From: a virus
DNA length: 64,000 nt
Direction: 5' to 3' (one strand)
Virus record (IMG/VR): IMGVR_UViG_3300031834_001450
Span: 1 to 64,000 of that record
Within the stretch, counting starts at the first letter, position 1. Every line of letters starts with the position of its first letter. The position numbers were made by a program, and so were the translations under genes. The notes under the pieces are model-generated. The model had not been told where the DNA came from. It ran no database searches and saw only the letters and a program-made list of their open reading frames with translations. Positions 4,178 through 61,441 of the stretch are shown piece after piece.

Positions 4178-4186
4178 AATTTTAAT

Positions 4187-4936
4187 TTAATTGAAAGTTA
4201 TTTTATTTGAATCAAATTCATAAAAATTAGTATTATTTAAATAGTGTTTAGTATTACAACTATCTCCTCGTATTTCTTTACACCCTTCTCGAAGTAATAA
4301 TTTTCTTAATATCCAATCTGGAGCATATCTTCTATATAATTTTTCACCGTCATTTATTACTTCATAAAGATTTTGTGTTATATCTATTATATTATTTAAT
4401 ATTTTAATAGGTAAAATAAAACAACCAAAACTATCAGACATTACTTGTTTTTTAGATTTTATAATATATGGGATATTTATAATATATGGAATTATTTCTT
4501 TATTTTTTCTTTCAAGAATTTTACATAATTTATATATATCATTAGCATCAATTTTTATATCAGCATCAATATAAAAAATATAATCAAAAGAAGTAAGTAC
4601 TTTCTTAATATTCATAAACATATATATTCTTTGTTTTGCCCATCCAACTTCATGAGCATTTTTTTCATTCATATTTTCTTTATAAATAGCATCAAAAGGT
4701 AATTTTGTAACTTGTATATTATATGTTTCAAAATTAAATAAATTCTCTTCAGGGCATTCTGTGCATGATAAAATATCTTGAAGATTTTTTGTCATTTGAT
4801 TATGACAAGAAAATAATCGATAAGTAAATAAATTAGATATTTTATTATATTTAGATGACTCCATAAAATAGTTTAAATTTTCTATTTCATGACAATTATT
4901 TTGCTCTGGAAAAAGACTCATATATAAAATTTTCAA
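4187..4936 (-). CDS. Putative GT-A glycosyltransferase
   Basis: FDYIFYIDADI DxD motif, SFGC; cluster context. Confidence 0.55.
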   Translation of the reverse strand: MKILYMSLFPEQNNCHEIENLNYFMESSKYNKISNLFTYRLFSCHNQMTKNLQDILSCTECPEENLFNFETYNIQVTKLPFDAIYKENMNEKNAHEVGWAKQRIYMFMNIKKVLTSFDYIFYIDADIKIDANDIYKLCKILERKNKEIIPYIINIPYIIKSKKQVMSDSFGCFILPIKILNNIIDITQNLYEVINDGEKLYRRYAPDWILRKLLLREGCKEIRGDSCNTKHYLNNTNFYEFDSNKITFN

Positions 4937-4969
4937 CTTAACTTCTCCTTATAATTTAAAAATAATTGT

Positions 4970-7583: not shown

Positions 7584-8232
7584 AACTTAAATTTTCTCTA
7601 TCTAATCCTCGTAATTCATTAAATTTTATATACCTATCTAAAGCGATATCAGCACTAACCCATTTATCTAAAGGAAGTAATTGCCCAAATAAACCTGAAC
7701 TTAATGGTGTATTATTGGCCTGATTTCTTAACTGAAAATATTTATACCCAGCTTTTTGAAGATTTATAAATAAATGCATATAATCTATTTTATTTAATTC
7801 AAAAGAAACAAATTTAGGTTTTTCTTTAGCAAACCTTAAATGAAAGGAAGTTATTATATCACAACCTTCTATATCAACTTTCATATAATATGGTATTCCA
7901 TACTTTTCAAAAAGACTACTTATATTTATTGACTCAACTATTATTTTAGTACTTGTTTCTCCATCTTGTTCTGCAATATGTTGATAGATACTTCCCCATT
8001 CTAATTTAGTTGGATGAATATAAAAATCTATTTTAGTTATTTCATCAGATACTACATTATTTAAAAGAATTAATTGACCTTTATTTATTTCATCTTTAAA
8101 TTTTTTATTTCCTATTTCAGTTAAATTGGGGTTACCTTCTACTGCTATTACTTTAAATCCCTGCTCTAAATAATAAGCAGTATCTGTACCATCACAAAAA
8201 CCTAAATCAAATATTAATTTATTGTTTTGCAT
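7552..8232 (-). CDS. FkbM-family methyltransferase
   Basis: FDLGFCDG...VIAVEGNP...YMKVDIEGCD. Confidence 0.85.
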   Translation of the reverse strand: MQNNKLIFDLGFCDGTDTAYYLEQGFKVIAVEGNPNLTEIGNKKFKDEINKGQLILLNNVVSDEITKIDFYIHPTKLEWGSIYQHIAEQDGETSTKIIVESINISSLFEKYGIPYYMKVDIEGCDIITSFHLRFAKEKPKFVSFELNKIDYMHLFINLQKAGYKYFQLRNQANNTPLSSGLFGQLLPLDKWVSADIALDRYIKFNELRGLDRENLSFGWLDIHAQQ

Positions 8233-14592: not shown

Positions 14593-15723
14593 TTATTCTC
14601 CTATGAGTTTATTTATTTGTTCAATAAAATTTTTTTTACCAAATTTTTTAATAATTTCAAGATCATTATTATTAGTATTCATATAATATTCTTGTTTATT
14701 TAACTTCCACATATTATAACAATCTCTTAAATTTTTAATAATATCTTTTATTGATGGAATAGCATAAATTGAATTTGATTCATACTCATAATGAGACATA
14801 CCTTGAGCAGTATCAAGAATACAAGAGATAGATTTATTTCCCTTAAATTTTCCAGTTTCAATAGTTGATGACCAATTCGTATAAATGCAAGGTAATCCAA
14901 TCATTCCAGCTTCTATTAAAGGTAATCCAAATCCTTCACCTCTAGAAGGAAATAATAATATAGATGATTCTGTATATAGAGAATAAATTTCATCTTTATT
15001 TAAATTTTGAGTAATTTCATAAATTTTTGCTTTCATTTCTTTTGAATTTGTACTAACTAATGTTTTTAATAATAATGGAATTTCTAACTCTTTATTAGAT
15101 AGTGGATGATATTTTAATATCAATCTACAATCTTTATATTGAGATAATGCATGTAAAAATCCTATTATTGCATCTTCCATTCCTTTTCTTTTAGTATATT
15201 GCCCTATATATAAAACAGTAAATATATTTTCATTATTTTTATTTTCTATTTTTATTTTATATTTAGAAAAATCATCTTTAAATATTGGGCAATATATAAG
15301 ATGATTTTCTTTATTTGTTCCTTTTATTTCATCTTTAATCATATCATAAATAAATTTAGATGGTGATATAAATCCAGTAAATAAATTAGATGCCCATAAC
15401 CATTTCCACTTAGAAGGTAAAGGAATAGTTTCCCAAAATAAATGTAAATAAATTTTAATACATGAAGTTGTAACTTGTTCTATATTTTGTTTAACTATTT
15501 TATTTTCAAATGATAATGGATGAGTTAATATAATACAAATATCATATTTATTAACAATATTCTTATATATTCCCATACTTAATTCATTTATATTTATATA
15601 AGTTACTTCTATATTTTCTATAATATCAAACATTTTCTTAAATGATTCTGCTATCACTCCATATCCACCATTTTGTGCTAAAATAAATTCTTCATATGGT
15701 GAAATATATAAAATTTTTTTCAT
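14593..15723 (-). CDS. Glycosyltransferase, GT4
   Basis: YIGQYTKRKG, PSRGEGFGLPLIEAGMIGLP. Confidence 0.9.
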   Translation of the reverse strand: MKKILYISPYEEFILAQNGGYGVIAESFKKMFDIIENIEVTYININELSMGIYKNIVNKYDICIILTHPLSFENKIVKQNIEQVTTSCIKIYLHLFWETIPLPSKWKWLWASNLFTGFISPSKFIYDMIKDEIKGTNKENHLIYCPIFKDDFSKYKIKIENKNNENIFTVLYIGQYTKRKGMEDAIIGFLHALSQYKDCRLILKYHPLSNKELEIPLLLKTLVSTNSKEMKAKIYEITQNLNKDEIYSLYTESSILLFPSRGEGFGLPLIEAGMIGLPCIYTNWSSTIETGKFKGNKSISCILDTAQGMSHYEYESNSIYAIPSIKDIIKNLRDCYNMWKLNKQEYYMNTNNNDLEIIKKFGKKNFIEQINKLIGE

Positions 15724-15746
15724 CTATTCTTTATCCCTTACTATTT

Positions 15747-16019
15747 TTATTTATTATTTAAAATTATTTTAAATTTATGCCAAATTTGTGGAAGTACTAA
15801 TGACCAAAAATTATGTTTAAAATTTATACAATTATTATTTTTATTTTGAGGATAAGAAAAAGGGCGTTTTTGTATACAAATATAAGTTGGTATTAATTTT
15901 AAAGTATTTAAAAATTTATTATTATAAGAAATAGTACTACTACTACTACTATTATAATAAATTCTATAATATTTACATTTTTTACAAAATGTAATTTTAT
16001 TCATTTTTATTTTTTCCAA
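15747..16019 (-). CDS. Hypothetical Cys-containing protein
   Basis: ORF in operon orientation, CKKCKY. Confidence 0.45.
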   Translation of the reverse strand: MEKIKMNKITFCKKCKYYRIYYNSSSSSTISYNNKFLNTLKLIPTYICIQKRPFSYPQNKNNNCINFKHNFWSLVLPQIWHKFKIILNNK

Positions 16020-16101
16020 TAATAAGGTTTATTTTTTCAAAAATACTGTAAAAGAATTCCATTTAGTTTTAAACAGATAATAATAATTAAGTTTAATAAT
16101 T

Positions 16102-17400
16102 TTACCACATTTCTCCTTTACCAGCTTTAACCATTATTCCATACACTCCAGCAACACTACTTCTTCTTAAGTAATAAAGACCTACAGAAAAGTCAAAACT
16201 TGCAATAGATACATTTGTAAATAAAGCAGGAGCAGTTTCAAACCCCGTACCTACTGGACAATAAGATTCTACAAAATCAGTAATTATTTTACTTTGAAAT
16301 GTATTAGATGAATTAAATCCCCGAACTTGAGATGTATCTGTGTATGAGTTATAAGTAATTGTAAAGTTTACTGTTGAACCAGTTACCAGTGATTTTATTG
16401 GTCTTATAGGAAGAGTTACAATTTCTGTAATAATTCCATTTTGTTGTTTATAATTTTTATTATCTATTGTAAAATATAATACTTTATTTATTCCAAGTCC
16501 TATAGAAAAGAAATCTGTAAAAGTATATATAATTGGATCAGATGTAATTGAACTGACAAATATTCCATTAGAATATGTTGATATTGTTTCAGTATATGAA
16601 CAAATGTATTTACTTAATGTTTTAGTTCTATAATACCAAAGTTCTTTAGTTGCTTCTATTAAATAGAAGAAATTTGAATCAATTGGAATTAAAGGAATAT
16701 TTCTTGTAATACTATAAGTAATTATTGATTCTGCTATAGTTACAGTCACTAAATATTCTTGTTCACTTAAATTTGCCGCTATTACTTTATAAGTTACAGG
16801 ATTTGTAAAATTATTTGTAGTTTCCTCACTAATTTGAATTGTACTTCCAATTTTAATAGTAGTTCCTGATATTGAAAAAGTAGCTACCATAGAAGTTACA
16901 TCTGTTCCATTTGGAACAATTAAATCAATAGTTTTTAATGTTTCATTGATAGTAGCATTTATTCCATTTAAAGAAAAAGATAATATACTTTTATCTACAC
17001 TAGTTGCAGTTATAACTGTTATAGTATAGTTTACTGTTGAAGTATCTTCTGCATGTATAGTATAAATAACGGAATTTGTAAAATCATTAGGTGTTTCTTC
17101 AGTTATTTGTTCAATTCCATTTATTGTTGTTTTTACTCCAGTTGTTTCAAAAGCAGTAATAAGATTTACTTTATTTGTTCCTATTGGTACTATTATAGAA
17201 ACTGTTTTCATTGTTTCATCTATTAGACCAACAACTTCGGGAGTTATAATAGAAAATGATATTAATGCCTTAGAATTAGAGGTTATAGGATTATCATTTT
17301 CTTCTTTTCCATTACTGTCATTATTATTGCTACTACTACCACCACAAGAAATAAGAAAAATAATTGTTATAAAACTTAGTAAATATTTAAAATTTTTCAT
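16102..17400 (-). CDS. Lipoprotein with two DUF5018-like Ig domains
   Basis: Signal peptide ending FLISC, Ser/Asn linker, two repeats of the form S.K.I.SFS...G.I.ET..T....VP.GT....L.A.F. Confidence 0.8.
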   Translation of the reverse strand: MKNFKYLLSFITIIFLISCGGSSSNNNDSNGKEENDNPITSNSKALISFSIITPEVVGLIDETMKTVSIIVPIGTNKVNLITAFETTGVKTTINGIEQITEETPNDFTNSVIYTIHAEDTSTVNYTITVITATSVDKSILSFSLNGINATINETLKTIDLIVPNGTDVTSMVATFSISGTTIKIGSTIQISEETTNNFTNPVTYKVIAANLSEQEYLVTVTIAESIITYSITRNIPLIPIDSNFFYLIEATKELWYYRTKTLSKYICSYTETISTYSNGIFVSSITSDPIIYTFTDFFSIGLGINKVLYFTIDNKNYKQQNGIITEIVTLPIRPIKSLVTGSTVNFTITYNSYTDTSQVRGFNSSNTFQSKIITDFVESYCPVGTGFETAPALFTNVSIASFDFSVGLYYLRRSSVAGVYGIMVKAGKGEMW

Positions 17401-48107: not shown

Positions 48108-48611
48108 TTAACTATAAAATATTTTTATATCTATTTCATTTTCATTACAGTAATCTACAATAAATTCAGGTATTCTATGTATTGGCCATTTACAAAAACC
48201 TAGTTTTTCTCCTAAATAATATTGTCTATAGGATTTTACAGCATCTTTACATTTATATTGTTCTGGCATAGCTAATTTAAATTGAGTAAGTCCTCTAGAT
48301 TTTAACTTTGATTGGTTAAAATTATGAATTACTTGTTCACTTTTATGAACTCTACCATATCTATAAGTATATTCTTTACAAAGTCCTAATGTATATATTT
48401 TAAGCCATTCAAAATTATCTAAACTTTCTCTCGCCCATATACAACAAGGATGATTATAATGTGTCCTTTTATAAAGTACTTCTGATTGATCAAAACAATT
48501 ACATAGAATTTGAACACTCTCCAATATCATTTTCACATTATGTTTATTACAAAGCATAATTGAATTATCTATTGGATTTTCATTTAATACAAAAATATTC
48601 AAAATATCCAT
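48108..48611 (-). CDS. Pyrimidine-dimer DNA glycosylase/endonuclease V family protein
   Basis: NIFVL..NP......CNKHNVKMILES.Q, YKRTHYNHPC..W, LCKEYTYRYG..H, AMPEQYK..DAV.SYRQYY. Confidence 0.8.
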   Translation of the reverse strand: MDILNIFVLNENPIDNSIMLCNKHNVKMILESVQILCNCFDQSEVLYKRTHYNHPCCIWARESLDNFEWLKIYTLGLCKEYTYRYGRVHKSEQVIHNFNQSKLKSRGLTQFKLAMPEQYKCKDAVKSYRQYYLGEKLGFCKWPIHRIPEFIVDYCNENEIDIKIFYS

Positions 48612-49006: not shown

Positions 49007-51679
49007 TTAAACTATTATTTTAAAATTATTAGTATTTCTTACATTTAATCTTTGTAAACATTCATTCCATTCTTCTTGATGTAAATCCCAATATTGTTTA
49101 CCATATCCATATTTCCATATTTCACCATATTTAATATCAGCCATTAGTTTCACTTGATTATTATCAATATTTTTATAATATGGTATTTCCATCCAATATT
49201 TAATAATTTTACAAACTTCTTCTATTTCATTTAAGTCTAGTTCAAATACAATCTCATCATGTACATTTATAAGTATTTTAGATTTTAGATTTTTTTCTTT
49301 AAATTCTTTCCAAATATTAATCATTGCAATAATAGTAGTTTGACCACTCGTTCCTTGTACTGGAGCATTTATTGCAGCATTTAATAAGTTACCAACATCA
49401 AAAGAAGATTGTTTTTTATTATAAAAACTATCTTTTCCAATATAAGTTAATTGAGGCAATCTTCTTTTTCTTCCTAATAGAGATTTCACCCATCCATATT
49501 TTTTAGCATGTTCACGATTATTTGTTATATATGTTGCTACTTCTGGATATGATTTATAAAATGCATCCAAAAATTTATTTCCTTCATCATTAGAAATATT
49601 AAACATATTTGCTATTCCATAATTTGTAGACCCATATAGAGCACTAAAATTTAATGACTTGGATTTACCTCTCCATTCTACAAATTCTTTATCTTCTTGA
49701 CCATCTATTTTAGTTTTTGAAAATACTTCTTCATATGTTGTTTTTTTATTTAATAATTCAAATAATTGTACGCAAGTATAACAATGCATATCTTTATTTT
49801 CAAGTATAAGAGATTCAAGAATACCAGGACCTGATATTTGAGAAAATATACAAACTTCCATTGCATCATAATCTGCAAAAGCCATAACCATATTTTTTGA
49901 CGGTAAAAATATTTTTCTAAATTCTTTTGTTTTTGGCATATTTTGCCAATTTATAGAAGACCCTAAACCACCTCCTCCTGACATTCTACCAGTTTCAGTT
50001 CCATGTAATTTATATCCACCATATAATCTATTATTATATATAGAAGCTAAAAATCCTTTTTCATTTTCTTCAAGTTCATCTTCATTACCAAATAATGCGT
50101 CTCTAGTAGATTCTTTTTGTTGTAATGAATATCCAAATTGAGAAATTTCTTTTGTAATATGATTATATTCTGCAATTTTTTTCATGAATGGTAAATTAGA
50201 TTCTTCTGCATATCTTTCTAGTGTTTCTTTATCAAGTGTTAAATCACCATTTTTATTTAAAAGTTCTTTGCCATCAGAATTTGTTAATACTTTAAAATTT
50301 TCTAAATTTCTTAAAACTTTACTTAATTCTTTACCACTTTTTAAATTAAAAGTATATCCAGCAATTTTATATAATTCTTGTTCTGTTTCTAATGCTTGTA
50401 TTTTTAATTGTTTTACATATTCATTTAAATATTTAATATCAATTTGAACACCAGTCATTTCTATATCTATAATCATTGGTATTGCTGGCATTATAAACTT
50501 ATAAAAATTATCTTTTATAAATAAATCTTCTAATTCTAATCGATTTTTAAAATATACATATAATTGATATGTTATTATACTATCATAACAAGCATATTCA
50601 AGTAATAATTGTTCTGGTAATTTTGTAAAATCAGTATTTTTATTCTGTTTAATATATTGTTTTAACTTAATATCATATCCACCTAATTGTGTATAAATCC
50701 AAGTTAATTGTTTTAATCCATTGGGGGTATTTTCATTAAGAAGATGAGAAGCTAACATAGTATCAAAAGTACATTTTGCATTATATATTCCATTACTAAT
50801 TAAAAACTTCAAATCAAATTGGGAATGATGCAAGCAAAAATCAATATCAGTTCTATTAAATAATTCAATTAATAAATTTTTATCTATTTGATCAAAATAA
50901 CAAAAATATCCAGATCTACCATCAAAAGAAAATTGAATACTATACAATTTTCCTTCTATATAATTTAAATTAGAAGTTTCAATATCTATAGCAATTGCAA
51001 TAATATCTTTATTTTTTATAAGTTCTTTAAGAAAAGAATTTGGATTTTTTTCTAAAAATAAATTATATTTTGAAATTCTTCTTTTATTTTCTACTATAGA
51101 AGATAAAATAAATTTAAATTGTTGAGTAATAAATTTATATTCATAGACATCTTTTATAGTGTCACTTATCCATTGATATAAAGCAGGAATTGGAAATATT
51201 TTACAATTAAATTCTTGAGAATATAACCAACAATCATCTTTTTGATATTCTTGTAATGAATTATTAACTGGAATAAAAAAATGTTCAGCTCGTAATCCTT
51301 TACTTTCTGTAATAGAATATAATGCTCTACCTGTAGTTATAATACATTTTGGATTATATTTTTCTATTATTTTTTTTATATTATATTCTTTACATTTTAC
51401 GTAAGTATTTATTGTATCTTGTGAAGAAAACCCAATAGGAGTACATCCAAGAGCTGGAATAATAGCATATTTTATATTTTTAAAATAATTTTCACATAAT
51501 TTTAAAAAAGGATTTAATTTATCAAATGTTTCTTTAAATTCAAGCAATATTAAAACATCTATATTTTCTTGATTTATTGAATTTCCATAATGTTCATTAT
51601 ATGTATTTGTATAAATAGTACTTTTATTTGCAGCACAACTACATTTTTGTATTTTCTTTTTTTGTAAAAAATCTTCCAT
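49007..51679 (-). CDS. polA: Family A DNA polymerase with 3'-5' exonuclease and an SPO1-type UDG-like N-terminal domain
   Basis: DIETS, FDTMLASHLL, YACYD; TETGRMS, ADYDAME, KSLNFSALYG, NAPVQGT, VHDE. Confidence 0.93.
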   Translation of the reverse strand: MEDFLQKKKIQKCSCAANKSTIYTNTYNEHYGNSINQENIDVLILLEFKETFDKLNPFLKLCENYFKNIKYAIIPALGCTPIGFSSQDTINTYVKCKEYNIKKIIEKYNPKCIITTGRALYSITESKGLRAEHFFIPVNNSLQEYQKDDCWLYSQEFNCKIFPIPALYQWISDTIKDVYEYKFITQQFKFILSSIVENKRRISKYNLFLEKNPNSFLKELIKNKDIIAIAIDIETSNLNYIEGKLYSIQFSFDGRSGYFCYFDQIDKNLLIELFNRTDIDFCLHHSQFDLKFLISNGIYNAKCTFDTMLASHLLNENTPNGLKQLTWIYTQLGGYDIKLKQYIKQNKNTDFTKLPEQLLLEYACYDSIITYQLYVYFKNRLELEDLFIKDNFYKFIMPAIPMIIDIEMTGVQIDIKYLNEYVKQLKIQALETEQELYKIAGYTFNLKSGKELSKVLRNLENFKVLTNSDGKELLNKNGDLTLDKETLERYAEESNLPFMKKIAEYNHITKEISQFGYSLQQKESTRDALFGNEDELEENEKGFLASIYNNRLYGGYKLHGTETGRMSGGGGLGSSINWQNMPKTKEFRKIFLPSKNMVMAFADYDAMEVCIFSQISGPGILESLILENKDMHCYTCVQLFELLNKKTTYEEVFSKTKIDGQEDKEFVEWRGKSKSLNFSALYGSTNYGIANMFNISNDEGNKFLDAFYKSYPEVATYITNNREHAKKYGWVKSLLGRKRRLPQLTYIGKDSFYNKKQSSFDVGNLLNAAINAPVQGTSGQTTIIAMINIWKEFKEKNLKSKILINVHDEIVFELDLNEIEEVCKIIKYWMEIPYYKNIDNNQVKLMADIKYGEIWKYGYGKQYWDLHQEEWNECLQRLNVRNTNNFKIIV

Positions 51680-51724: not shown

Positions 51725-52165
51725 TTAAATTTTTTCTACTTCAATCCCTCTATTTTTTAAAAAATCTATTCCAGAAGAATCTCTATATTCTTCTCTATAA
51801 AAAACTTTTTTAATACCAGCAGATAGAATTTGTAAACTACAATTAAAACATGGAGATAATGTTATATAGATTGTTGATCCATTAGGAGAAATACCCTGTT
51901 TTACTGCTTTATGTATGGCATTAAGTTCTGAATGCATTACTTCTTTTCTAGTAACTAATTCTCCCAGTTCATTAATATATTCACATTCATTGTCCATTCC
52001 CATGGGCATACCATTATATCCATATGCTATAATATTATGATCTTTAACAATAACGCATCCAACCTTATTACGAGTTGCATAAGACATCTGAGATGTATTA
52101 ACTGCAATAGACATATATAATTGATCATATTGTTTTATTCGTTCCTTATTCATTATAACTCTCAA
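51725..52165 (-). CDS. dCMP deaminase
   Basis: KVGCVIVKD, GYNG, HSELNAI, TLSPCFNC. Confidence 0.93.
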   Translation of the reverse strand: MRVIMNKERIKQYDQLYMSIAVNTSQMSYATRNKVGCVIVKDHNIIAYGYNGMPMGMDNECEYINELGELVTRKEVMHSELNAIHKAVKQGISPNGSTIYITLSPCFNCSLQILSAGIKKVFYREEYRDSSGIDFLKNRGIEVEKI

Positions 52166-52865
52166 CTATTTTTTGTAATAAATCAAAATGTCTATCATAT
52201 ATATGAAAAGATCCAAAAAAGAAATTAATAATTCCCATTTGTAAAGTTGGATATATTTCTTTTAATTCTAAATATAATTTATTATAAACATAACAATGCC
52301 AATAAAAATCATTAAAAAAGCCATAAATTCCATCGCAACTTCTTTGATCTACAAAATATATCAATGAATTATTTCTAATAAAACATTGAACACTATTGGT
52401 ACATACAAAATCTGACATTCCATTTCTATTATAATCTATATGCATAGATGGTCTTGTATATAACATTAATGCTCTTCTTGATAGAGGATTAAATATTAAT
52501 TCTTGTTTACAATTATTAAATTGATTATAATTCTCTTCAGAAAAAATTAAATAACCATAATTAGAATTTATTTCTTTTTTTTCATCTTTAGTACAAACAT
52601 CGTTCCATATTTTAATATCATCAACATAATCAATAATAGATAATGATTCTGAAAGATACCAATTTAATTCTTTTTCTACATATTGAATAGAAGTTTTTTT
52701 AATTTCATTAAAATTTAAAATTGATTGTACTGGATTTAATCCTTCTATTTTACATCCAATAATTTCAACAACTTTAATACCAGTTTTATCTATTACAAAC
52801 TTTTTATTTTGTATATCACTATATAATTTTTTAAAACTCGGTAACAATATTTGTTCATTAGTCAT
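52146..52865 (-). CDS. dCMP hydroxymethylase, T4 gp42-like (thymidylate synthase fold)
   Basis: DKTGIKVVEIIG, EINSNYG, SRRALMLYTRPSM..DYN..GMSDFVCTN, RSCD..YGFFND, GSFHIY match T4 gp42 as recalled. The Asp that specifies dCMP is kept. Confidence 0.88.
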   Translation of the reverse strand: MTNEQILLPSFKKLYSDIQNKKFVIDKTGIKVVEIIGCKIEGLNPVQSILNFNEIKKTSIQYVEKELNWYLSESLSIIDYVDDIKIWNDVCTKDEKKEINSNYGYLIFSEENYNQFNNCKQELIFNPLSRRALMLYTRPSMHIDYNRNGMSDFVCTNSVQCFIRNNSLIYFVDQRSCDGIYGFFNDFYWHCYVYNKLYLELKEIYPTLQMGIINFFFGSFHIYDRHFDLLQKIVESYNE

Positions 52866-54070
52866 TTTAATAATCCTTCAATATCTTTAATTACATTATT
52901 TGAAATTTCTTCAAAAGCTCCTTGATTATTTCTAATTTTAATTTCTTTAAATTCATTTGTATTAATATAATCTAAAGAATCTAGTGCATAATTTAATTTT
53001 TGTACTATGCTATCAACTATAGGTGAATCACCATCATGATCGATATAATAAGGATACTTTTTACCACCTCTTCTAGCATATTCAAAAACCATAGGCATTA
53101 TAGTAATATTATTACAATAAAGAGACTCCACTTGACTACACCCCCCCATTCTCTCAAGAATAAATCCATGAAAGCTAATATCTGCTTTCCATAATAATTC
53201 AAAGTATTCTTGTCTATTAAGAGATCCTTCTTTATAAATATAGAGAGGTTTAACTAATTCTTTTAATTCATCTATGGAATATTTTCCAGATGGATTTGTA
53301 AATATAACTTGAAAATCTTTTCTTTTTTCATAAAGTTTATTTACTGCTTCAATAAATTCTATGTGATGAGTATAGTTTATACCACTTAATCTATTGAGAA
53401 ATAATATAGTTTTCTTTTCAAATTTTTCTTCTAATTTATAAGTATCAGCCTCTTTTTTAGAAAATCCAAAATCCCAAATAAAACTTTTCTTTTTAATTTG
53501 ATTTATTTTATTTGATTTAAAAACTAATTTAGCATTATTAAAAAAAGCTTCTTTTGTTGATTTACAAGTAAAAATACAAAGATCAGAACATTCATATCCA
53601 TCAAATTGTCTATATTGATAACTTATTTCAGTAGCCACTTTTGCTTCATTAATTTCAGGAGTATCCATCCAATAACAACAAGAAATTAACTTTGTTTCTT
53701 TTGATTTTTGAAATAAATATGTTTTTATATTTCTAGAAAGTTCTATAATATTATTCCATACAATATCAATCTTTGGAAGTTCTTTAAAAATAGAATCAAA
53801 TTCAATAATATTAAAATGTTGTCGTATTGTAAATGCATCAATAGGATAAGTATAGGGAATAAAAATAACATTTTTGTGTTTAAAGATATTATCATAAGAT
53901 TTTATGTCAGCAAAATCTTTAAGTGGTGCAATAAGAATATAAACTGTCCAATTTATCTTTTCAACAATTTCAGTTAAAATCCCAACTAGCATATTAATGT
54001 TACTATCAGCGCTAATCCATTTATTTTCATTATTATAAATACTTTGTTGCAAAATATATAAAATATTCAT
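52862..54070 (-). CDS. GT-B glycosyltransferase, probable DNA (hmC) glycosyltransferase
   Basis: ILFLNRLS, LNRQEYFELLWKAD, GGCSQVES; translationally coupled (ATGA) to the gp42-like gene. Confidence 0.7.
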   Translation of the reverse strand: MNILYILQQSIYNNENKWISADSNINMLVGILTEIVEKINWTVYILIAPLKDFADIKSYDNIFKHKNVIFIPYTYPIDAFTIRQHFNIIEFDSIFKELPKIDIVWNNIIELSRNIKTYLFQKSKETKLISCCYWMDTPEINEAKVATEISYQYRQFDGYECSDLCIFTCKSTKEAFFNNAKLVFKSNKINQIKKKSFIWDFGFSKKEADTYKLEEKFEKKTILFLNRLSGINYTHHIEFIEAVNKLYEKRKDFQVIFTNPSGKYSIDELKELVKPLYIYKEGSLNRQEYFELLWKADISFHGFILERMGGCSQVESLYCNNITIMPMVFEYARRGGKKYPYYIDHDGDSPIVDSIVQKLNYALDSLDYINTNEFKEIKIRNNQGAFEEISNNVIKDIEGLLK

Positions 54071-54753
54071 TTATTATCTCCTATTATATTTTTTAAATGC
54101 GCTTCACTTCTATTTCTTAATTTAATTTTATGTTTTCTAAGTATTTTGCTAATAGGCCCACCATAGACATTATATCTTTTTCCTATTGTATAAGGTGATT
54201 CTTTTAAATTTAAATATGAAAAAATTATTTCTTTTTCTTGCTCATCTGTAAAAAATTTACCACTAGCTTCTTGTAAATTTCTTTTATGCACATTATTTTC
54301 TTTTAATATTCTTTCAATAACCGCACCACTAACATTAAATATTTTTCCTATATTTTTTAAAGATATTTTGTCATTATACATATTTAAAATAGATATAGTT
54401 TGTGATTGAGAAAATTGAATTTTACTTCTTCCAGGACAATCTGTATTATCTGGATCCTGTTTATTATACCCAAATTCACTATTTTTTGTTTTATAAAAGT
54501 CTATATAATATTTTTCCTTTTGTCTAAGAGTATCTTCATTATATTCTGATAGTAATTCGATAATATAAAAATTAAAATTTTCTTTGCCGTATTTTAATAA
54601 TGAAAATCTTAAATGTTTATTTATGGCCTCATTTTTTAAAAATAATTGCATATGATCTTTTAACCTTGACTGAACATATTTAGAACTTCCAATATATTTT
54701 TTGTTATTTATTTTATTTTCAATACAATATATTCCAGGTTGTACAAATAGCAT
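54067..54753 (-). CDS. Free-standing GIY-YIG homing endonuclease
   Basis: PGIYCIENKINNKKYIGSS...R, EKYYI, GYN; two C-terminal HTH repeats. Confidence 0.9.
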   Translation of the reverse strand: MLFVQPGIYCIENKINNKKYIGSSKYVQSRLKDHMQLFLKNEAINKHLRFSLLKYGKENFNFYIIELLSEYNEDTLRQKEKYYIDFYKTKNSEFGYNKQDPDNTDCPGRSKIQFSQSQTISILNMYNDKISLKNIGKIFNVSGAVIERILKENNVHKRNLQEASGKFFTDEQEKEIIFSYLNLKESPYTIGKRYNVYGGPISKILRKHKIKLRNRSEAHLKNIIGDNK

Positions 54754-55254
54754 TTATTCTCCTATGAATTCTTTTATTTTTAATATTTGATTTTCTAAAT
54801 TTTCATCTGTAGTATCTAATATAAGATATTCACATTTTGTTTTTTTAAGAAATTCAATATAATATTGTTTTATTAATTTTATTTTATTTTGATTAATAAC
54901 ATCATCAATATATATTTTATATTCTTTTTTAAAACAATAAATAAGTTTTAATTTCAACTTAGAAAACTCTTCATCTATTTGCCATATAAAATTTTCATTA
55001 AATTGTCTATCTAATGCTAAGGAATATGAAAAATGACAAGCAATTCCACGATCCATAATTAAATTAGTTGGAACTTGTTTTAAATAATCTATAAAAAATC
55101 TACTTTCATATTCTACTGAAAGATCAATTTCATTATTTTTAAAATATTCTTTTGTATTATTATTTCTATAATATGAAATATTTAATAACTTAGATATTAT
55201 TTGAGCAATTGTTGTTTTTGCTGTTCTATCAGGACCAATAAATTGAATCAACAT
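54754..55254 (-). CDS. dNMP kinase (thymidylate kinase-like)
   Basis: FIGPDRTAKTT P-loop variant, IMDR. Confidence 0.75.
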   Translation of the reverse strand: MLIQFIGPDRTAKTTIAQIISKLLNISYYRNNNTKEYFKNNEIDLSVEYESRFFIDYLKQVPTNLIMDRGIACHFSYSLALDRQFNENFIWQIDEEFSKLKLKLIYCFKKEYKIYIDDVINQNKIKLIKQYYIEFLKKTKCEYLILDTTDENLENQILKIKEFIGE

Positions 55255-55265
55255 TAAATTTTTCC

Positions 55266-55955
55266 TTATATTTTTTCTAAAAAATAAATCACATCTCTAC
55301 TTAATTTATAATTATTCCAAGCAAATAAAACTCGTTGAATTTCAATTGGTAAAATAGTAAACTCTTCTATTGCACAATTATTTAAATAATTATCATTTGA
55401 CATACTCCATCCATGTACATCTAATATTTTGAGTCCACTTTGATTAAAACAATCTTCAAGTTCTTTATAAGTATATTCATAATTATGATATTTTGGCCAA
55501 TTTACAATATTTGATATTTGATTTGGTGTACTTATAATTAAATATTTAAAAGGTAAATTACAAATTTTATTAAAAATTTCTATTCCTTTTTCTTTTGAAT
55601 TAAAATGTTCAATTACATCTAATAATAATAAACAATCAATTTTATTTTTTAAAATAATTTCTTGAATAGTTAAAAATACATTTTCTGTTTTATAAAAAAT
55701 TCCATTACTACAAAGATTATCATATATAATTGAATCTCTATAATCAATACCAAAATAAGAAATAATTTTATTTGATTCAATTAATAATTTATTAATATAT
55801 GCTGTATCACAACCCACATCAATAATTGATTCAATATTATTTTTAATAATAAATTCTCTAACAGATTGATCTTTAAATAATTTACTTATATATCCAGGAT
55901 CAAGATCTATTTTAGATAATTGTTGTCTTAATGATGACATATCAACAATAGTCAT
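55266..55955 (-). CDS. Class I SAM-dependent methyltransferase
   Basis: IIDVGCD, YFGIDY, DVIEHF, IISTPN. Confidence 0.8.
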   Translation of the reverse strand: MTIVDMSSLRQQLSKIDLDPGYISKLFKDQSVREFIIKNNIESIIDVGCDTAYINKLLIESNKIISYFGIDYRDSIIYDNLCSNGIFYKTENVFLTIQEIILKNKIDCLLLLDVIEHFNSKEKGIEIFNKICNLPFKYLIISTPNQISNIVNWPKYHNYEYTYKELEDCFNQSGLKILDVHGWSMSNDNYLNNCAIEEFTILPIEIQRVLFAWNNYKLSRDVIYFLEKI

Positions 55956-56992
55956 ATTTTTTCTAAATTTACCATTTCAATTACCCATGGTATAATTTCA
56001 TCTAATGCTTTATTTAATGAAGTTTCTGCTTTAAATCCTAATAACTTTTCTGCTTTATCAATAGAAGGAATTCGGCATTGTACATCATATTCATACGGGT
56101 TATCTGAAATATAATTAAACTCTACATTAGAATTTAATCTATCCCAAATAATTTTTGCAAGTTCTAATACAGTATAACTTTCAGGGGTACTTAAATTAAA
56201 ATCAGTATTTAATGCATTTTCATTAAAAATGGCTTGATAAATCCCTTCTGCTAAATCTCCTGCATATGTATAATGGCGTATTTGATTTCCTTTTCCAAGA
56301 ATATGAAGCGGGTTTTGACCTTTAATTATTTTTTGTATAAGATCAGGTATTACATGGCTAAGAGCTAATTTAATATTACCAGACATAACTACTGTTTCTG
56401 TCATAGCTGCTTGTTCCCCAATTCCAGCTGCATTAAATGGTCTTACAATAGTATATGGAAGTTTATATTGTTCATATGCACCTTTAACAAAATATTCAAT
56501 TGCAAGTTTTTGAAATCCATATGTTGATAATGGAGGTGGGCAAATCAATTGATCTCCTTCTTTTGAAGGAAAAGTTTCTGTTGATTCAAAAACCATACTT
56601 GAAGATATTGCAATTATTTTTTTAAGAAATCCTTCTTTATGCGCTTTAATTGCAATATCAAAAATAGATGCGGTAAGTCTTTCATTTTCAGCAAGTAAAT
56701 CATAAGCCAATTCATGAAAGAAACTTATACCACCAATCCACGCAGCTCCATGCACAATATAATCTATTTTATTAGAAAAAATTATATTTTCTAAAATATC
56801 TTTATTTTTTGCATCACCATAAAAATGAAAATAATTTGGATGTTTATCAAAACTTTTTTCTAATGGACCATATTTCCAATCATTATCTACTCCATAAACA
56901 ATATGACCTTCATTTAATAATTTTTGTATTGAATATCCTGCAATAAAACCTCGATCACCAGTCCAAAATATTTTAGCCATTAATTTCTCCAA
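55952..56992 (-). CDS. NAD-dependent NDP-sugar epimerase/dehydratase (extended SDR)
   Basis: TGDRGFIAG, SSSMVF, YGFQK, RPFN. Confidence 0.92.
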   Translation of the reverse strand: MEKLMAKIFWTGDRGFIAGYSIQKLLNEGHIVYGVDNDWKYGPLEKSFDKHPNYFHFYGDAKNKDILENIIFSNKIDYIVHGAAWIGGISFFHELAYDLLAENERLTASIFDIAIKAHKEGFLKKIIAISSSMVFESTETFPSKEGDQLICPPPLSTYGFQKLAIEYFVKGAYEQYKLPYTIVRPFNAAGIGEQAAMTETVVMSGNIKLALSHVIPDLIQKIIKGQNPLHILGKGNQIRHYTYAGDLAEGIYQAIFNENALNTDFNLSTPESYTVLELAKIIWDRLNSNVEFNYISDNPYEYDVQCRIPSIDKAEKLLGFKAETSLNKALDEIIPWVIEMVNLEKI

Positions 56993-58212
56993 TTATTATA
57001 TAAATTTTCTTTTAATATATTCCATCCATCAATTACTATTTTATCATTAAATTCTTCTTTAGTAAAAGTAAGATATTCTTTATGATTTATTGCTATAATA
57101 ATAATATCACATTGTTTAACTTCTTCTATTGAATAATTTATAAAAATCATATTATTATATTTATCATTATATTCTCCTAACGGAAGATTAGGTTCATTTA
57201 TTTTAATTTGTTCTGGTAAATTACGTTCTAAATATCTAATTAATTTAGGTGTTAAATTATCTCTAGTATCATCAGTATTACTTTTAAATGTAAATCCAAA
57301 AATTCCAATAGTTTTATTTTTAATATCATTTTGAATTAAATCAACATAAAATTTTGGTGTAAATTCATTAATTTTGTAAGCTTGTAATATTAAATCTGTT
57401 TGTGGAAAATTTTCATTAATCATTCCCCAATCTTTCGTTAAACATGTGCCTTTTGCAAAACCAGGAGTCAATAATCCTTTATTTCTATCATATCCAGGAT
57501 TCATTAAAGAAAATAATTTATATATATCAACTCCAAATGATTGTGACATATATGAAAAATAATTAGGAATTGCCATATTTATGTAACGATAAATATTTGT
57601 AAATAATTTACTTAATTCAGCTTCAATAAAAGTTGATTTAAAGATTTGAATTCCTAAAATAGAAAAAATATTTTTTGCAAGATCAAAACTAATATCATCT
57701 TTTACTCCAATAACTTGAGGTAATTCTAATAATTCTTTATATGCTTCGCCTTCAACTATTCTTTCAGGACACATTGCTAAATAAAAATCTTTACCAAGAA
57801 TATAGTTTGTTTTATTTTCAATAATATTTTTGATATACTCAGTTGTATTAGGTGCAACTGTTGATCTAAGAATAATTAATTTATTTTTAATATCTATTTT
57901 AGAAATTAAATCATTAATTACGAATGTTACTTGAGATAAATCTGTTTCAATATGTTCTCCTAGTGGAGTTCCAACAGTTAGTATATATGCTTTTGCATCA
58001 GGGTAATTTTCATATTTTGAATTATAAATTGTAAAAGTTTCTTTAACTAATTCATCATATCCTGGTTCATAAAATGGCATTTTATTATTTTTAATACCCT
58101 CTATCATTTCATCATTAATATCTACACCACAAACATTTAACTTTTTTTCTCGTAAAGATAATGCCAATGGAAGACCAACTCTTCCACATCCTATTACACA
58201 AATATCATACAT
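56980..58212 (-). CDS. NDP-sugar 6-dehydrogenase (Ugd/WecC family)
   Basis: VIGCGRVGLP, TVGTP, RSTV, PERI, KLFTN, GTCLTKD, FKSNTDD.R. Confidence 0.92.
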   Translation of the reverse strand: MYDICVIGCGRVGLPLALSLREKKLNVCGVDINDEMIEGIKNNKMPFYEPGYDELVKETFTIYNSKYENYPDAKAYILTVGTPLGEHIETDLSQVTFVINDLISKIDIKNKLIILRSTVAPNTTEYIKNIIENKTNYILGKDFYLAMCPERIVEGEAYKELLELPQVIGVKDDISFDLAKNIFSILGIQIFKSTFIEAELSKLFTNIYRYINMAIPNYFSYMSQSFGVDIYKLFSLMNPGYDRNKGLLTPGFAKGTCLTKDWGMINENFPQTDLILQAYKINEFTPKFYVDLIQNDIKNKTIGIFGFTFKSNTDDTRDNLTPKLIRYLERNLPEQIKINEPNLPLGEYNDKYNNMIFINYSIEEVKQCDIIIIAINHKEYLTFTKEEFNDKIVIDGWNILKENLYNNWRN

Positions 58213-58234
58213 ATATTAACTCCATTTTTATTTT

Positions 58235-58729
58235 CTATTTTATTCCCGTACTTCCAAAACCACCACTTCCTCTTGAAGATTCTTTATCTATATAAAGTTC
58301 TGAAAATTCTACTTCATATGGTAAAAGATAAGAAATAGGAATTAGTATAAATTGAATTATTTTTTCATTTTGTTCTATAACCACTATTTCATTAGAAGAA
58401 TTAATAAGAGAAATATGTATTTCACCTAAATAATCTTCATCTATAGTTTCTGCTGCTTTTATTAAACCTCTTCTTGAACTTATTCCAGATTTATTAAATG
58501 CGTTTAACATAAATCCATCTGGTATATTTGCATGAATACCTGATGGAATTAAACATCTTTCATTTGGATTTAGGATAATTGCTGTATTATTTATTTGAAT
58601 ATTTGAATTTTTTAATTTAAAATCTAATAAAAATTGTGAATCAAATACAGGAATAAAAAAATCTATTCCAGCAGATTTTGGAGTTGATCTAATTGGACTT
58701 TTTACCTCTCTAATTTTCGAAAATTTCAT
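58235..58729 (-). CDS. dut: Trimeric dUTPase-family pyrophosphatase 1
   Basis: SAGIDF, KSG, IDEDYLGE, RGSGGFGSTG. Confidence 0.88.
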   Translation of the reverse strand: MKFSKIREVKSPIRSTPKSAGIDFFIPVFDSQFLLDFKLKNSNIQINNTAIILNPNERCLIPSGIHANIPDGFMLNAFNKSGISSRRGLIKAAETIDEDYLGEIHISLINSSNEIVVIEQNEKIIQFILIPISYLLPYEVEFSELYIDKESSRGSGGFGSTGIK

Positions 58730-59101: not shown

Positions 59102-59296
59102 TTAATTTTCTTTTATTGCATTCGCTGGACATTCAAAATTTATAATACAAGTTTTACAATTTTTACATTTAGTTTGATCTATAGTACTTTGTAAATATCC
59201 TTTCTTAATTATATTTAAATGATCTATTTGAATAGCTTCAAAAGGACATTCTTCTACACACATCCCACACGAAATACAGTCTTCTATAATTCTCAA
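59102..59296 (-). CDS. 2x[4Fe-4S] ferredoxin
   Basis: CISCGMCVEECP...CKNCKTC....CP. Confidence 0.9.
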   Translation of the reverse strand: MRIIEDCISCGMCVEECPFEAIQIDHLNIIKKGYLQSTIDQTKCKNCKTCIINFECPANAIKEN

Positions 59297-60120
59297 TCTA
59301 TTTCTCCTATTTTATAATAGCAAATTTCATTTAATACGGTTTCTCTTTTTCTATTAGGACTTATATTTTTTAATTTATTCAAATAGATTTTATTTTTAAA
59401 ATATTTATTACCTATTTCATTCTCTATATCAAAATAAATAATATCATTGGAAATAAAATCTAATTGTTTAAACATTTCTTCCAAATCCTGTATACTCCAT
59501 CCATTAGAATTAACCATTTTATTTATTTGATAGGGGGGATCTAAAATATATAAACTATTTTTTAAATTTATAATATTAAAAGCATTATTTGATATAAATA
59601 ATTTATCTTTAATGAGTTTAAAGTTTTTTAAAGAATATTCAAAATCTCTACATGTATAATTACTAATAAACCTGTTCCCAAAACTTTGATTAAATCCATT
59701 AGGTCCAAATCTATACATAGTATTTATACAACTATTTACTAAAATTATTAAACCAAATGCTTCTTCTTTAGTCTGCTTTTTCCATAAAATATTATTAAAA
59801 TAATCTCTAAAATTATAATATCCATTATAAGTTGAAACATTATATTGAAGATTATTTACGTAAGTAGTAAACTCACCTTCATCTATTAAGAATAGATGTT
59901 CATAAATATTTAATAAATTAATATCTATTTCTGAAACATAATAACTATTAAATTGTTTTTGTAAATTTAATAATATTTGTGCAGAACCTAAAAAAGGTTC
60001 AACATAAATATTTTTATTTGATTTTTTTACAAGATCATTTATCATATCTAAATGAATAAGTTTATTACCCATATATTGGAATAGTCTAGATATAATTTGT
60101 TTTCTTTGTAAAAAACTCAA
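59293..60120 (-). CDS. Dam-like (D12 class) N6-adenine DNA methyltransferase
   Basis: YMGNK, YVEPFLGS, LDPPY. Confidence 0.85.
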   Translation of the reverse strand: MSFLQRKQIISRLFQYMGNKLIHLDMINDLVKKSNKNIYVEPFLGSAQILLNLQKQFNSYYVSEIDINLLNIYEHLFLIDEGEFTTYVNNLQYNVSTYNGYYNFRDYFNNILWKKQTKEEAFGLIILVNSCINTMYRFGPNGFNQSFGNRFISNYTCRDFEYSLKNFKLIKDKLFISNNAFNIINLKNSLYILDPPYQINKMVNSNGWSIQDLEEMFKQLDFISNDIIYFDIENEIGNKYFKNKIYLNKLKNISPNRKRETVLNEICYYKIGEID

Positions 60121-60848: not shown

Positions 60849-61007
60849 TTATTCCTTTATTTTATTAAATTTTGGACAAACTATTTGTACAACTAAATGA
60901 GATTGTTTACATCTTTCTTTACATTTTTTACATAATTCTGAAAAATTAGACCAATACCATTTACTATATTGTTTATCTGACATTGAATTAATATTTATAT
61001 TTTCCAT
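60849..61007 (-). CDS. 52-aa Cys-rich protein (not in ORF track)
   Basis: TAATG coupling; CKKCKERCKQS...CPKF. Confidence 0.5.
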   Translation of the reverse strand: MENININSMSDKQYSKWYWSNFSELCKKCKERCKQSHLVVQIVCPKFNKIKE

Positions 61008-61441
61008 TATTTTGTACCTGTTGACCCAAAACCACCTCTTGGATTATCTGTCATATGTTCTACTTCTGTAATAAGTATTTGAGGCATTTTTTCTACTACT
61101 CGAAATTGACAAACTCTATCATTCTTTTTTATATAAGATTCTCTTGTTGCATATATTGGCATTTTTACAATATCAGATTCTCCACAAAACGATTCATCTA
61201 AAATTCCCATAGAATTTATTTGTAAAATTCCCCAAATTTTAAAAGTAGAAGATCTTGGTAATATATGCATTTCATATCCAGGAGGAACTTTAACAGATAC
61301 ACCTAAATCAATAAGTCTAAAATCACCTTGTTCTATATGATAATCATAAGCACTTCTTAAATCTATCCAATCTCCTTTCTCTATTTTTTCTATTTTAATT
61401 AAATCTAATACATGATATTTTACTTTTAATTCAAGAATCAT
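61007..61441 (-). CDS. dut: Trimeric dUTPase 2 (DWIDL type)
   Basis: GDWIDLR, PRSST, GILDESFCG, RVCQFR, RGGFGSTG. Confidence 0.9.
   Translation of the reverse strand: MILELKVKYHVLDLIKIEKIEKGDWIDLRSAYDYHIEQGDFRLIDLGVSVKVPPGYEMHILPRSSTFKIWGILQINSMGILDESFCGESDIVKMPIYATRESYIKKNDRVCQFRVVEKMPQILITEVEHMTDNPRGGFGSTGTK

Follow-up and report, generated by a model that had tools for sequence, protein, structure and literature searches.

A candidate DNA hypermodification operon in a metagenomic phage: a gp42-type enzyme encoded together with a phage-borne, probably acidic sugar donor pathway

What base does a phage carry in its DNA when one operon encodes a T4 gp42-like enzyme together with enzymes for nucleotide-sugar synthesis, glycosyl transfer, and methylation? 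The question is raised by nine minus-strand open reading frames (ORFs) at positions 51725–58729 of a 64,000-nucleotide stretch of viral DNA (the window), which is the first 64 kb of the 83,334-bp IMG/VR viral contig IMGVR_UViG_3300031834_001450 and is known from a metagenome. Judging from sequence comparisons, these genes probably serve a pre-replicative replacement of cytosine, followed by glycosylation with a sugar donor made by phage enzymes. Gaps or overlaps between the ORFs did not exceed 22 nt. In the order of transcription, they encode a dUTPase-family protein, a nucleotide-sugar 6-dehydrogenase, an extended short-chain dehydrogenase/reductase (SDR), a class I S-adenosylmethionine (SAM)-dependent methyltransferase, a kinase, a GIY-YIG endonuclease, a 402-residue glycosyltransferase (GT), a gp42-like protein, and dCMP deaminase, and polA follows. 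Pfam, PHROGs, and NCBIfam confirmed seven of them (the dUTPase-family protein, dehydrogenase, SDR, methyltransferase, GIY-YIG endonuclease, gp42-like protein with a thymidylate synthase (TS) fold, and dCMP deaminase) as well as polA. An earlier interpretation of this DNA (the sequence-only reading) had described a tightly packed operon of nine genes ending beside polA, and this description was borne out by the ORFs, the family libraries, and the structure model of the GT.

The gp42-like protein (positions 52146–52865, minus strand; 239 aa) was 44.9% identical to T6/T4-like gp42 over 96% of its own length and matched the T4 enzyme structure (PDB 1b49) with an E-value of 4e-52. The two residues that the sequence-only reading had pointed out, the Cys of the CTN motif and the dCMP-selecting Asp, were both found. 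Cys155 in MSDFVCTN aligned with Cys148 in MSDFMCTN of T4, the position marked by the C148S mutant (6a9a), and Asp186 in GFFND aligned with Asp179 in GFRND of T4, the position marked by the D179N mutant (6l18). As in T4, an acidic residue, Asp152, precedes the Cys by three positions and takes the place of Leu143 of the E. coli enzyme. Cys155, Asp152, Asp178, and Asp186 correspond to C146, L143, D169, and N177 of E. coli ThyA, respectively; in ThyA numbering, the catalytic residue is C146, selection of dCMP is due to N177D, and L143D/E accompanies a product other than methyl (Lee et al. 2026, PMC13326640), the acidic residue at the L143 position letting water in and hence yielding a hydroxymethyl product (PMC13326640). 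The choice between hydroxymethylase and hydroxylase had been called undecidable from sequence, a statement that is now outdated: Asn occupies the position of ThyA D169 in every 5-hydroxy-dCMP (5hodCMP) synthase tested (Lee et al. 2026, PMC13326640), and the reaction of these enzymes requires O2 and flavin (PMC13326640). The D169N mark of the RB69 gp48 type was absent from the window protein, which has Asp178 in QRSCD at this position, and all eight complete TS homologues of the related cassettes described below carried the same residue signature with Asp at the D169 position. Because this Asp is retained, an anaerobic ribonucleotide reductase (NrdD) is encoded, and the DNA is of sediment origin, the well-matched sequence signatures point to a dCMP hydroxymethylase making 5-hydroxymethyl-dCMP.

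The 402-residue protein (52862–54070, minus strand) had no match in Pfam, PHROGs, NCBIfam, or a phmmer sequence search of the PDB, and its family profile gave weak glycogen-synthase matches alone against the PDB (E = 0.017). The GT-B assignment made by the sequence-only reading, for which the sequence libraries offered no support, was confirmed by structure prediction and Foldseek. An AlphaFold2 (AF2) model based on an alignment of 36 homologues had two Rossmann-like domains with an inter-domain cleft, as in GT-B enzymes, with a predicted local distance difference test (pLDDT) value of 95.5 and a predicted template modelling score (pTM) of 0.92. The top Foldseek matches were MshA, PglA, BshA, PimA, and the GT20 enzyme OtsA, with a probability of 1.00 for MshA, PglA, BshA, and PimA, best E-values down to 6e-13, and TM-scores up to 0.71–0.74. 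Invariant E306 and E315 form an E-x8-E motif that is one residue longer than the E-x7-E motif of GT4 enzymes, and PF00534 (Glycos_transf_1) gave no match in the window GT and a precomputed match in five homologues. On the strength of the model, we are confident that the protein folds as a GT-B, GT4-like glycosyltransferase, a putative transferase for 5-hydroxymethylcytosine (5hmC) in DNA. No homology to T4 agt or bgt was detected in Pfam or PHROG families, and T4 GTs were not among the listed top Foldseek matches, which were all GT4, GT5, or GT20 enzymes.

In a collection of 5.8 billion proteins, 102 GT homologues were found, all metagenomic and many on contigs of 150–250 kb. Because 580 of 1.84 billion representatives reached an E-value of 1e-3 or lower in an exhaustive profile search (107 at 1e-30 or lower), the GT family appears by sequence to be a small discrete island outside the huge GT4 continuum. 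Members of the family were seen on metagenomic, virus-like contigs only. A tblastn search of 50,697 GenBank phage records with the GT returned no match. Scanning GTDB species genomes for a pattern likewise revealed no relatives, a negative of little weight given the limits of the pattern. A 4-nt overlap between the GT gene and that of gp42 suggests translational coupling.

The search for the same neighbourhood in other phages that the sequence-only reading had proposed was carried out, and nine IMG/VR loci (L002–L010) with GT identities to the window of 35–100% were compared. In all nine, the GT was accompanied by an SDR, a thymidylate kinase (TMK)-like kinase, a gp42-type TS gene (cut by the contig end in L002), and a nucleoside diphosphate (NDP)-sugar dehydrogenase, which was WecC-like in seven loci and short and Ugd-like in two. 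Genes for dCMP deaminase, a dUTPase-like protein, and a large polymerase were usually close by, and a polA homologue follows the cassette in L003 and L009 as well. Because the same set recurs around the GT in nine loci over this range of identity, the gene order is not due to chance. This comparison supports the view that the operon is a hypermodification cassette built on a gp42-type enzyme with its own sugar pathway, a GT-B enzyme, and an accessory methyltransferase.

The methyltransferase (55266–55955, minus strand; 229 aa) had a weak Pfam match (Methyltransf_23, 6.4e-6). In the PDB, a profile of 15 orthologues matched best the Hen1 domain of C. thermocellum (3jwi, 9.5e-11), followed by 3jwg, 3jwj, 3htx, and HENMT1 (Anabaena, Arabidopsis HEN1, and human). 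Residues were found at all four Hen1 metal-ligand positions: D113, E116, and H117 aligned with the E-V-I-E-H of CthHen1 and H157 with the His of DHRFEW. The four residues were invariant in the 15 sequences, the first ligand being Asp where Hen1 has Glu, and DIGCD in the SAM loop aligned with DFGCG of Hen1. In Hen1, the ligands E, E, H, and H bind a metal that anchors the ribose of the substrate through its 2′ and 3′ hydroxyls (PMC10781085). At the family level, TIGR04074 gave 15.2 bits against a cut-off of 340; neither Pnkp nor an RNA-binding domain accompanied the methyltransferase, whose gene is embedded in the DNA-modification cassette. The AF2 model had a pLDDT of 89.8, and ESM Atlas returned generic names only. 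Taken together, the protein is predicted to be a Hen1-like SAM-dependent O-methyltransferase, probably metal-dependent.

The methyltransferase subfamily consisted of 24 members, after which the score dropped from 229 to 72 bits, and 12 of the 13 members on contigs longer than 4.5 kb were matched to a GT-family member on a contig of equal size. It was present in about one-quarter of the GT cassettes and absent from L003, L004, and L008–L010; in L007, an FkbM-type methyltransferase gene (7362–8000) stands next to the GT gene in place of the Hen1-like one. A pattern scan of viral contigs for the methyltransferase yielded three loci, all of them already known. The methyltransferase is tied to GT contigs while GT cassettes without it are common, a nested occurrence that would be expected of an enzyme that tailors, and depends on, the sugar. 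The enzyme might instead cap the hydroxymethyl group, giving 5-methoxymethylcytosine at some sites or on the nucleotide, or methylate another target, and Hen1 enzymes do methylate a metal-held hydroxyl (PMC10781085). We consider such a role unlikely, since the subfamily is set off by a large score gap and occurs with the GT cassette in nearly all assessable cases, the metal of Hen1 binds a pair of adjacent hydroxyls, available in a pyranose but not in CH2OH, and capping would put the enzyme in competition with the GT for the acceptor hydroxyl. Methylation of the transferred sugar thus remains the preferred role.

The kinase (54754–55254, minus strand; 166 aa), a putative kinase for 5-hydroxymethyl-dCMP (hm-dCMP), was weakly recognised by phrog_761 (4.6e-5) and TIGR00041 (2.7e-5). 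Its P-loop residues G7, D9, and K13 and a D68-R69 motif were invariant in nine orthologues. The best PDB match of the kinase profile was YorR of SPbeta (2axp, 2.2e-9), followed by deoxynucleoside kinases and TMKs, and T4 gp1 (PDB 1dek) was not among the 60 best listed matches. The deoxynucleoside monophosphate (dNMP) kinase of the sequence-only reading is therefore a TMK-like P-loop kinase and probably not a homologue of T4 gp1. In all nine loci, the kinase gene lies at most two genes from the GT gene, and in six it directly adjoins it. This proximity, together with the apparent lack of gp1 homology, the small or lipid acceptors normally used by GT4 enzymes, and the lack of a consistent basic charge in the GT family, would fit a route in which the GT acts on hm-dCMP or the free nucleotide pool, the translationally coupled kinase phosphorylates the glycosylated product, and the polymerase incorporates it. 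We nevertheless hold glycosylation at the nucleotide level to be improbable. To our knowledge, the sugars on phage DNA bases are all added on the polymer after replication. A kinase beside gp42 would be required anyway to form hm-dCDP, the homing endonuclease gene parts the kinase from the GT in the window with no sign of harm, and phage GT-B enzymes have been shown to act on 5hmC DNA (Pyle et al., bioRxiv 10.1101/2023.12.21.572611). Transfer of the sugar to 5hmC in DNA is accordingly the order of events that we prefer.

For this transfer, the donor would begin with the dehydrogenase (56980–58212, minus strand; 410 aa), which belongs to the WecC/Cap5O-like branch. It passed TIGR03026 (269.6 bits; cut-off, 189.8) and contained PF03721, PF00984, and PF03720, the GCGRVG NAD motif, and catalytic Cys257 in GTCLTKD. 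Its best equivalog models were those of UDP-N-acetylmannosamine (UDP-ManNAc) dehydrogenases, NF040825 and NF008286, with 177 and 152 bits against cut-offs of 750 and 459, respectively, both of which were missed. PDB matches included the Pyrococcus enzyme 4r16 (2e-46) and S. aureus Cap5O (3ojl, 7e-41), the best UDP-glucose dehydrogenase reaching 4e-24. Among characterised E. coli enzymes, the comparison covered WecC and Ugd, which gave 133 and 45 bits, respectively. By sequence, the enzyme is nearer to UDP-ManNAc dehydrogenases than to UDP-glucose dehydrogenases. For this reason, an N-acetyl-hexosamine is at least as likely a substrate as glucose, and an N-acetyl-hexosaminuronic acid at least as likely a product as a plain hexuronic acid. 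UDP-N-acetylglucosamine (UDP-GlcNAc) is present in nearly all bacteria. The earlier proposal of a phage-made hexuronic donor holds with respect to the phage's own pathway, while plain hexuronic acid is no longer favoured. The dehydrogenases of L007 (5443–6243) and L009 (5693–6433) are short proteins of 246–266 aa without the C-terminal domain, and because they are Ugd-like, the GT-cassette family as a whole probably uses more than one sugar.

The SDR (55952–56980, minus strand; PF01370, 3.6e-34) is encoded by an ORF that runs to a TTG at 56992; the ATG at 56980, which gives the 342-aa form held in ESM Atlas, is probably the start. ESM Atlas supplied generic names only. The best PDB matches were 8vr2, 6dnt, Thermotoga GalE (4zrm), and UXS1. 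The NAD motif TGDRGFIAG and the catalytic triad were found (SSS at 130–132 and Y158-G-F-Q-K162, 346-aa numbering), and the motifs SSSM(V/I)(F/Y)E and YG(F/M)QK were conserved in ten orthologues. SSSM aligned with STSE of human UXS1, the Met being invariant in the family, and the SDR thus has neither the TSE Glu of the decarboxylases nor the TDE Asp-Glu of the 4,6-dehydratases. The best reading of this 4-epimerase-type active site is a C4 epimerase, whose predicted product is UDP-N-acetylgalactosaminuronic acid (UDP-GalNAcA), UDP-galacturonic acid (UDP-GalA), or an isomer. The sequence-only reading had left the donor either epimerised or decarboxylated; epimerisation agrees with the active site, and decarboxylation appears unlikely from the motif. 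A decarboxylase resembling UDP-xylose synthase (UXS) or ArnA, with a pentose (xylose, arabinose, or 4-keto-pentose) as the final sugar, would be consistent with the UXS1 structures among the best matches (6e-17), with the TSE carried by the best match, 8vr2, and with the standard UDP-xylose route, in which a decarboxylase follows a dehydrogenase. We doubt it strongly, given that ten of ten orthologues have SSSM, without the Glu used by UXS and ArnA, and that the dehydrogenase looks like an N-acetyl-hexosamine type, for whose products we know of no UXS-like decarboxylation.

That the DNA contains plain 5hmC while the dehydrogenase, SDR, GT, and methyltransferase alter a glycan on the host surface or a glycoprotein of the virion would suit the standard capsule and O-antigen locus parts represented here, but we regard it as very improbable, chiefly because the interleaving of sugar and DNA genes, with the GT gene lying between those of the kinase and gp42 and overlapping the latter, is kept across divergent phages, and also because cellular genomes yielded no member of the GT family (protein collection and pattern-limited GTDB scan) and no flippase, polymerase, or lipid-carrier gene was found in the cassette or the neighbouring ORFs scanned.

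In the pathway that we prefer, replacement of cytosine followed by glycosylation of the DNA, the dUTPase-family enzyme and dCMP deaminase would reshape the pyrimidine pool, and the gp42-type enzyme would convert dCMP to 5-hydroxymethyl-dCMP, a step well backed by sequence signatures. By analogy with T4, the TMK-like kinase and then a host NDP kinase would produce hm-dCTP, and the family A polymerase would incorporate hmC. The WecC-like dehydrogenase would oxidise C6 of a host UDP-sugar, most likely UDP-GlcNAc or UDP-ManNAc and less likely UDP-glucose, to a uronic acid. Epimerisation of this acid at C4 by the SDR would give a product such as UDP-GalNAcA or UDP-GalA; for the SDR, the enzyme class is supported and the substrate presumed. 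The GT4-like enzyme would then place the acidic sugar on the hydroxymethyl group of hmC in DNA, probably with retention of the donor anomeric configuration, as in retaining GT4 enzymes. In about one-quarter of the cassettes, that of the window included, the Hen1-like enzyme would methylate the sugar, at a hydroxyl or perhaps at the carboxylate. As a result, the DNA would carry bulky, negatively charged, and partly methylated cytosines and be shielded by them from restriction enzymes and CRISPR nucleases.

Several points weigh against this scheme. Everything in it beyond gene identity is what we infer from sequence alone, and the contig covers the genome only partly, with a completeness of about 54% (CheckV). 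The dehydrogenase missed every equivalog cut-off, which makes the assignment of its substrate tentative; motifs alone do not settle the chemistry of the SDR, and a literature search on its closest structure, 8vr2, found no described function. Foldseek placed the methyltransferase model among generic class I enzymes, including carboxyl methyltransferases, mixed with Hen1. Isoelectric points in the GT family ranged from 4.6 to 9.5 without a consistent basic DNA-binding signal for DNA as the putative acceptor. The dUTPase-family protein showed no detectable similarity to T4 gp56 and scored near canonical dUTPases.

The donor genes differ between closely related phages. When 9.4 kb of locus L002, a 10.4-kb IMG/VR contig, were compared with the window, identity was approximately 100% except in one patch; the nearly identical parts include window positions 52.9–55.9 kb and 57.8–62.0 kb. 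Within the patch (window positions approximately 55,960–57,720; L002 positions 3783–6119), nucleotide identity was 52–76%, with sharp edges at the SDR/methyltransferase junction and near codon 164 of the dehydrogenase, where the NAD domain ends. The patch, which we read as a product of recombination, contains the central and C-terminal (sugar-nucleotide-binding) two-thirds of the dehydrogenase and the whole SDR. Protein identities between the window and L002 were 78.6% for the dehydrogenase, 49% for the SDR, 99.75% for the GT (one residue), and 99.1% for the methyltransferase, and both patch alleles keep the catalytic motifs. Either the alleles make the same sugar, the exchange being neutral, or the GT accepts both products. 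A contig from another sediment sample had the window-type patch allele with three differences, but in it the 5′ part of gp42 was diverged and 357 nt were inserted ahead of gp42, on the side of the GT gene. Because the window-type allele is combined there with the diverged gp42 and the insert, the cassette region is mosaic in nature. The contigs of the four sediment runs were fragmented, and stretches without cover over the patch were left out of the evidence. Divergence of the gp42 5′ part and the 357 additional nucleotides were seen in contigs of runs X2 and X6, which are from other sediment samples (window positions 52171–52869).

A more specific proposal is that the virion DNA contains a previously unreported base, 5hmC carrying an O-methylated N-acetyl-hexosaminuronic (or hexuronic) acid, installed by a virus-only GT family and a Hen1 enzyme derived from RNA-end modification, with donor genes that recombine in a kind of serotype switching driven by host nucleases recognising the modification. 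We offer this version tentatively and hold it to be less likely than not. The sugar–cytosine base was earlier thought not to have been described; this was too strong, since reconstitution of TET-type metavirome clusters that include a partner epimerase has already given a hexuronic-acid 5hmC of 433 amu (Pyle et al., bioRxiv 10.1101/2023.12.21.572611).

The remaining genes of the operon concern mainly the nucleotide pool. The dUTPase-family protein (58235–58729, minus strand; 164 aa; Pfam dUTPase, 1.9e-16), a putative dCTPase/dUTPase, also matched Pfam DCD (3.3e-5) and gave 90.3 bits with TIGR00576, the cut-off of which is 102.55. A tblastn search with it found phage dUTPases, and T4-like coliphages did not appear in the organism tally. 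We propose that it may be a gp56 counterpart that removes dCTP and supplies dCMP. Its orthologues were found in or beside the cassette in L003, L004, and L008. A second dUTPase paralogue of 144 aa, 27% identical to the cassette copy, is encoded at 61007–61441 (minus strand); the presence of two old paralogues suggests a division of labour, for example, between dUTPase and dCTPase. The dCMP deaminase (51725–52165, minus strand; 146 aa; PF00383, 2.9e-23; phrog_174, 2.1e-52) has counterparts in the same or a nearby place in L003, L005, L006, L008, and L009. The polA gene (49007–51679, minus strand) encodes a family A DNA polymerase (PF00476, 2.8e-63) with a 3′–5′ exonuclease domain (PF01612, 1.7e-15), and a T4 endonuclease V-like pyrimidine-dimer DNA glycosylase gene lies just downstream of it (48108–48611, minus strand; Pyr_excise, 9e-7).

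The GIY-YIG homing endonuclease gene (54067–54753, minus strand; Pfam GIY-YIG, 2.4e-10; phrog_7168, 1.3e-21) sits exactly at the kinase/GT junction and was present only in the window and the nearly identical L002, the kinase and GT genes abutting or overlapping in L003–L006 and L010. It is a mobile passenger outside the pathway. Part of the gene was 71.6% identical at the DNA level to an endonuclease gene of cr1_1, an uncultured phage from human faeces. The replication region encodes a large homing endonuclease of the HNH type at contig positions 79647–80930 (L011 positions 15647–16930; minus strand; phrog_119, 1.3e-46), and the contig thus carries at least two free-standing endonuclease genes.

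Six of the nine related cassettes contained a gene for a uracil-DNA glycosylase (UDG)-superfamily protein of about 190 aa, with Pfam UDG E-values from 2e-8 to 1e-18. These genes were located at 6947–7507 in L003, 6827–7423 in L004, 6204–6755 in L005, 6263–6826 in L006, 9146–9739 in L008, and 9131–9709 in L009, and none was found in the 83 kb of the present contig. The UDG-like protein might remove deamination products of hmC or help base flipping.

The window has a G+C content of 22–30%, and the contig encodes contractile tail proteins (sheath and baseplate) and a DnaB-like helicase in addition to NrdD. The stretch recurred in contigs of sediment metagenome runs from several studies, and none of the sequencing runs listed as carrying it was an RNA run. 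Based on the contractile tail, G+C content, NrdD, and sediment runs, the source is probably a large myovirus with an anaerobic, AT-rich, sediment-dwelling host. Five genes upstream of the cassette, a Dam-like D12-class N6-adenine DNA methyltransferase is encoded (59293–60120, minus strand; Pfam, 3.5e-15), which may represent a second, independent DNA modification of the phage. A promoter and terminator scan gave results at the level of chance, with 135 promoter-like sites compared to 139.6 expected.

Sugar-coated cytosines are one of the main protections of phages against restriction enzymes and CRISPR nucleases, and they are in turn the target of type IV restriction and of a DNA-glycosylase defence. 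The cassette would add to the known systems a route to hmC before replication that lies outside the T4 family and, with an acidic donor of its own, is independent of host sugar pools, as well as a new, sequence-isolated family of candidate DNA glycosyltransferases, and the Hen1-type enzyme is a candidate for the first methyltransferase of a sugar on DNA. The swap of donor genes between nearly identical phages is direct evidence of such an exchange in nature. The enzymes could serve for 5hmC labelling with charged or methylated sugars. Our literature search found no paper joining a dCMP hydroxymethylase with a nucleotide-sugar dehydrogenase and none linking Hen1 with phage DNA glycosylation.

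Among known systems, the glucosyl-hmC pathway of T-even phages shares with the cassette a gp42 homologue (45% identity, catalytic and specificity residues unchanged), dCMP deaminase, and the sequence of dCTP depletion, hm-dCTP formation, and glycosylation. On the other hand, the cassette has a TMK-like kinase in place of gp1, a dUTPase-family protein without gp56 similarity, a GT4-like enzyme that matches no Pfam family, including those of the T4 GTs, an extra methyltransferase, and a family A polymerase, and its donor would be made by phage enzymes, whereas T-even phages use host UDP-glucose. The two-enzyme logic of the donor resembles that of the UDP-GalNAcA route of the Vi antigen and the P. 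aeruginosa O6 antigen (TviB/TviC and WbpO/WbpP), in which a UDP-N-acetylhexosamine 6-dehydrogenase and an SDR 4-epimerase feed a GT4-type transferase. The TviB model, however, gave the window dehydrogenase 78 bits against a cut-off of 592, WbpP-type epimerases were not among the best PDB matches of the SDR, and the acceptor is a polysaccharide there and putatively DNA here.

Host-like GT-A and GT-B enzymes repurposed for 5hmC, with a partner epimerase, are also found in the TET/5mYOX clusters (Pyle et al.; Burke et al. 2021, PMC8256090). Phage GT-A and GT-B enzymes put hexose (Hex), N-acetylhexosamine (HexNAc), hexuronic acid (HexA), heptose (Hep), and Kdo on 5hmC, often requiring a partner epimerase, and GT-B enzymes statistically go more often with TS homologues, dCMP deaminase, epimerases, and methyltransferases (Pyle et al., bioRxiv 10.1101/2023.12.21.572611). 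In the TET/5mYOX clusters, however, 5hmC arises after replication by a C5-methyltransferase and TET, whereas gp42 would provide it before replication here; no nucleotide-sugar dehydrogenase is mentioned for those of Pyle et al., in which the acidic sugar came from E. coli pools, and no Hen1-like methyltransferase is described. Phage-made donors are known from RB69, DLP3, and RL38JI (Lee et al. 2026, PMC13326640). The arabinosyl-5-hydroxycytosine system of RB69, DLP3, and their relatives resembles the cassette in its TS-fold enzyme, dNMP kinase, phage NDP-sugar pathway, and DNA GTs near the polymerase gene (PMC13326640). Its TS homologue is a flavin- and O2-dependent hydroxylase with D169N and its donor follows an arabinose route, whereas the cassette has Asp at this position, a dehydrogenase with an epimerase, and a setting of anaerobic NrdD and sediment. 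Finally, the methyltransferase resembles the Hen1/HENMT1 enzymes, which methylate the 2′-O of the 3′-terminal ribose of RNA, in its best profile match (about 1e-10), four ligand positions, and D-x-G-C SAM loop. It differs from them in consisting of the catalytic domain only, without Pnkp or an RNA-binding domain, and in having Asp rather than Glu as the first ligand, and its genomic context points to a sugar linked to DNA rather than to an RNA end.

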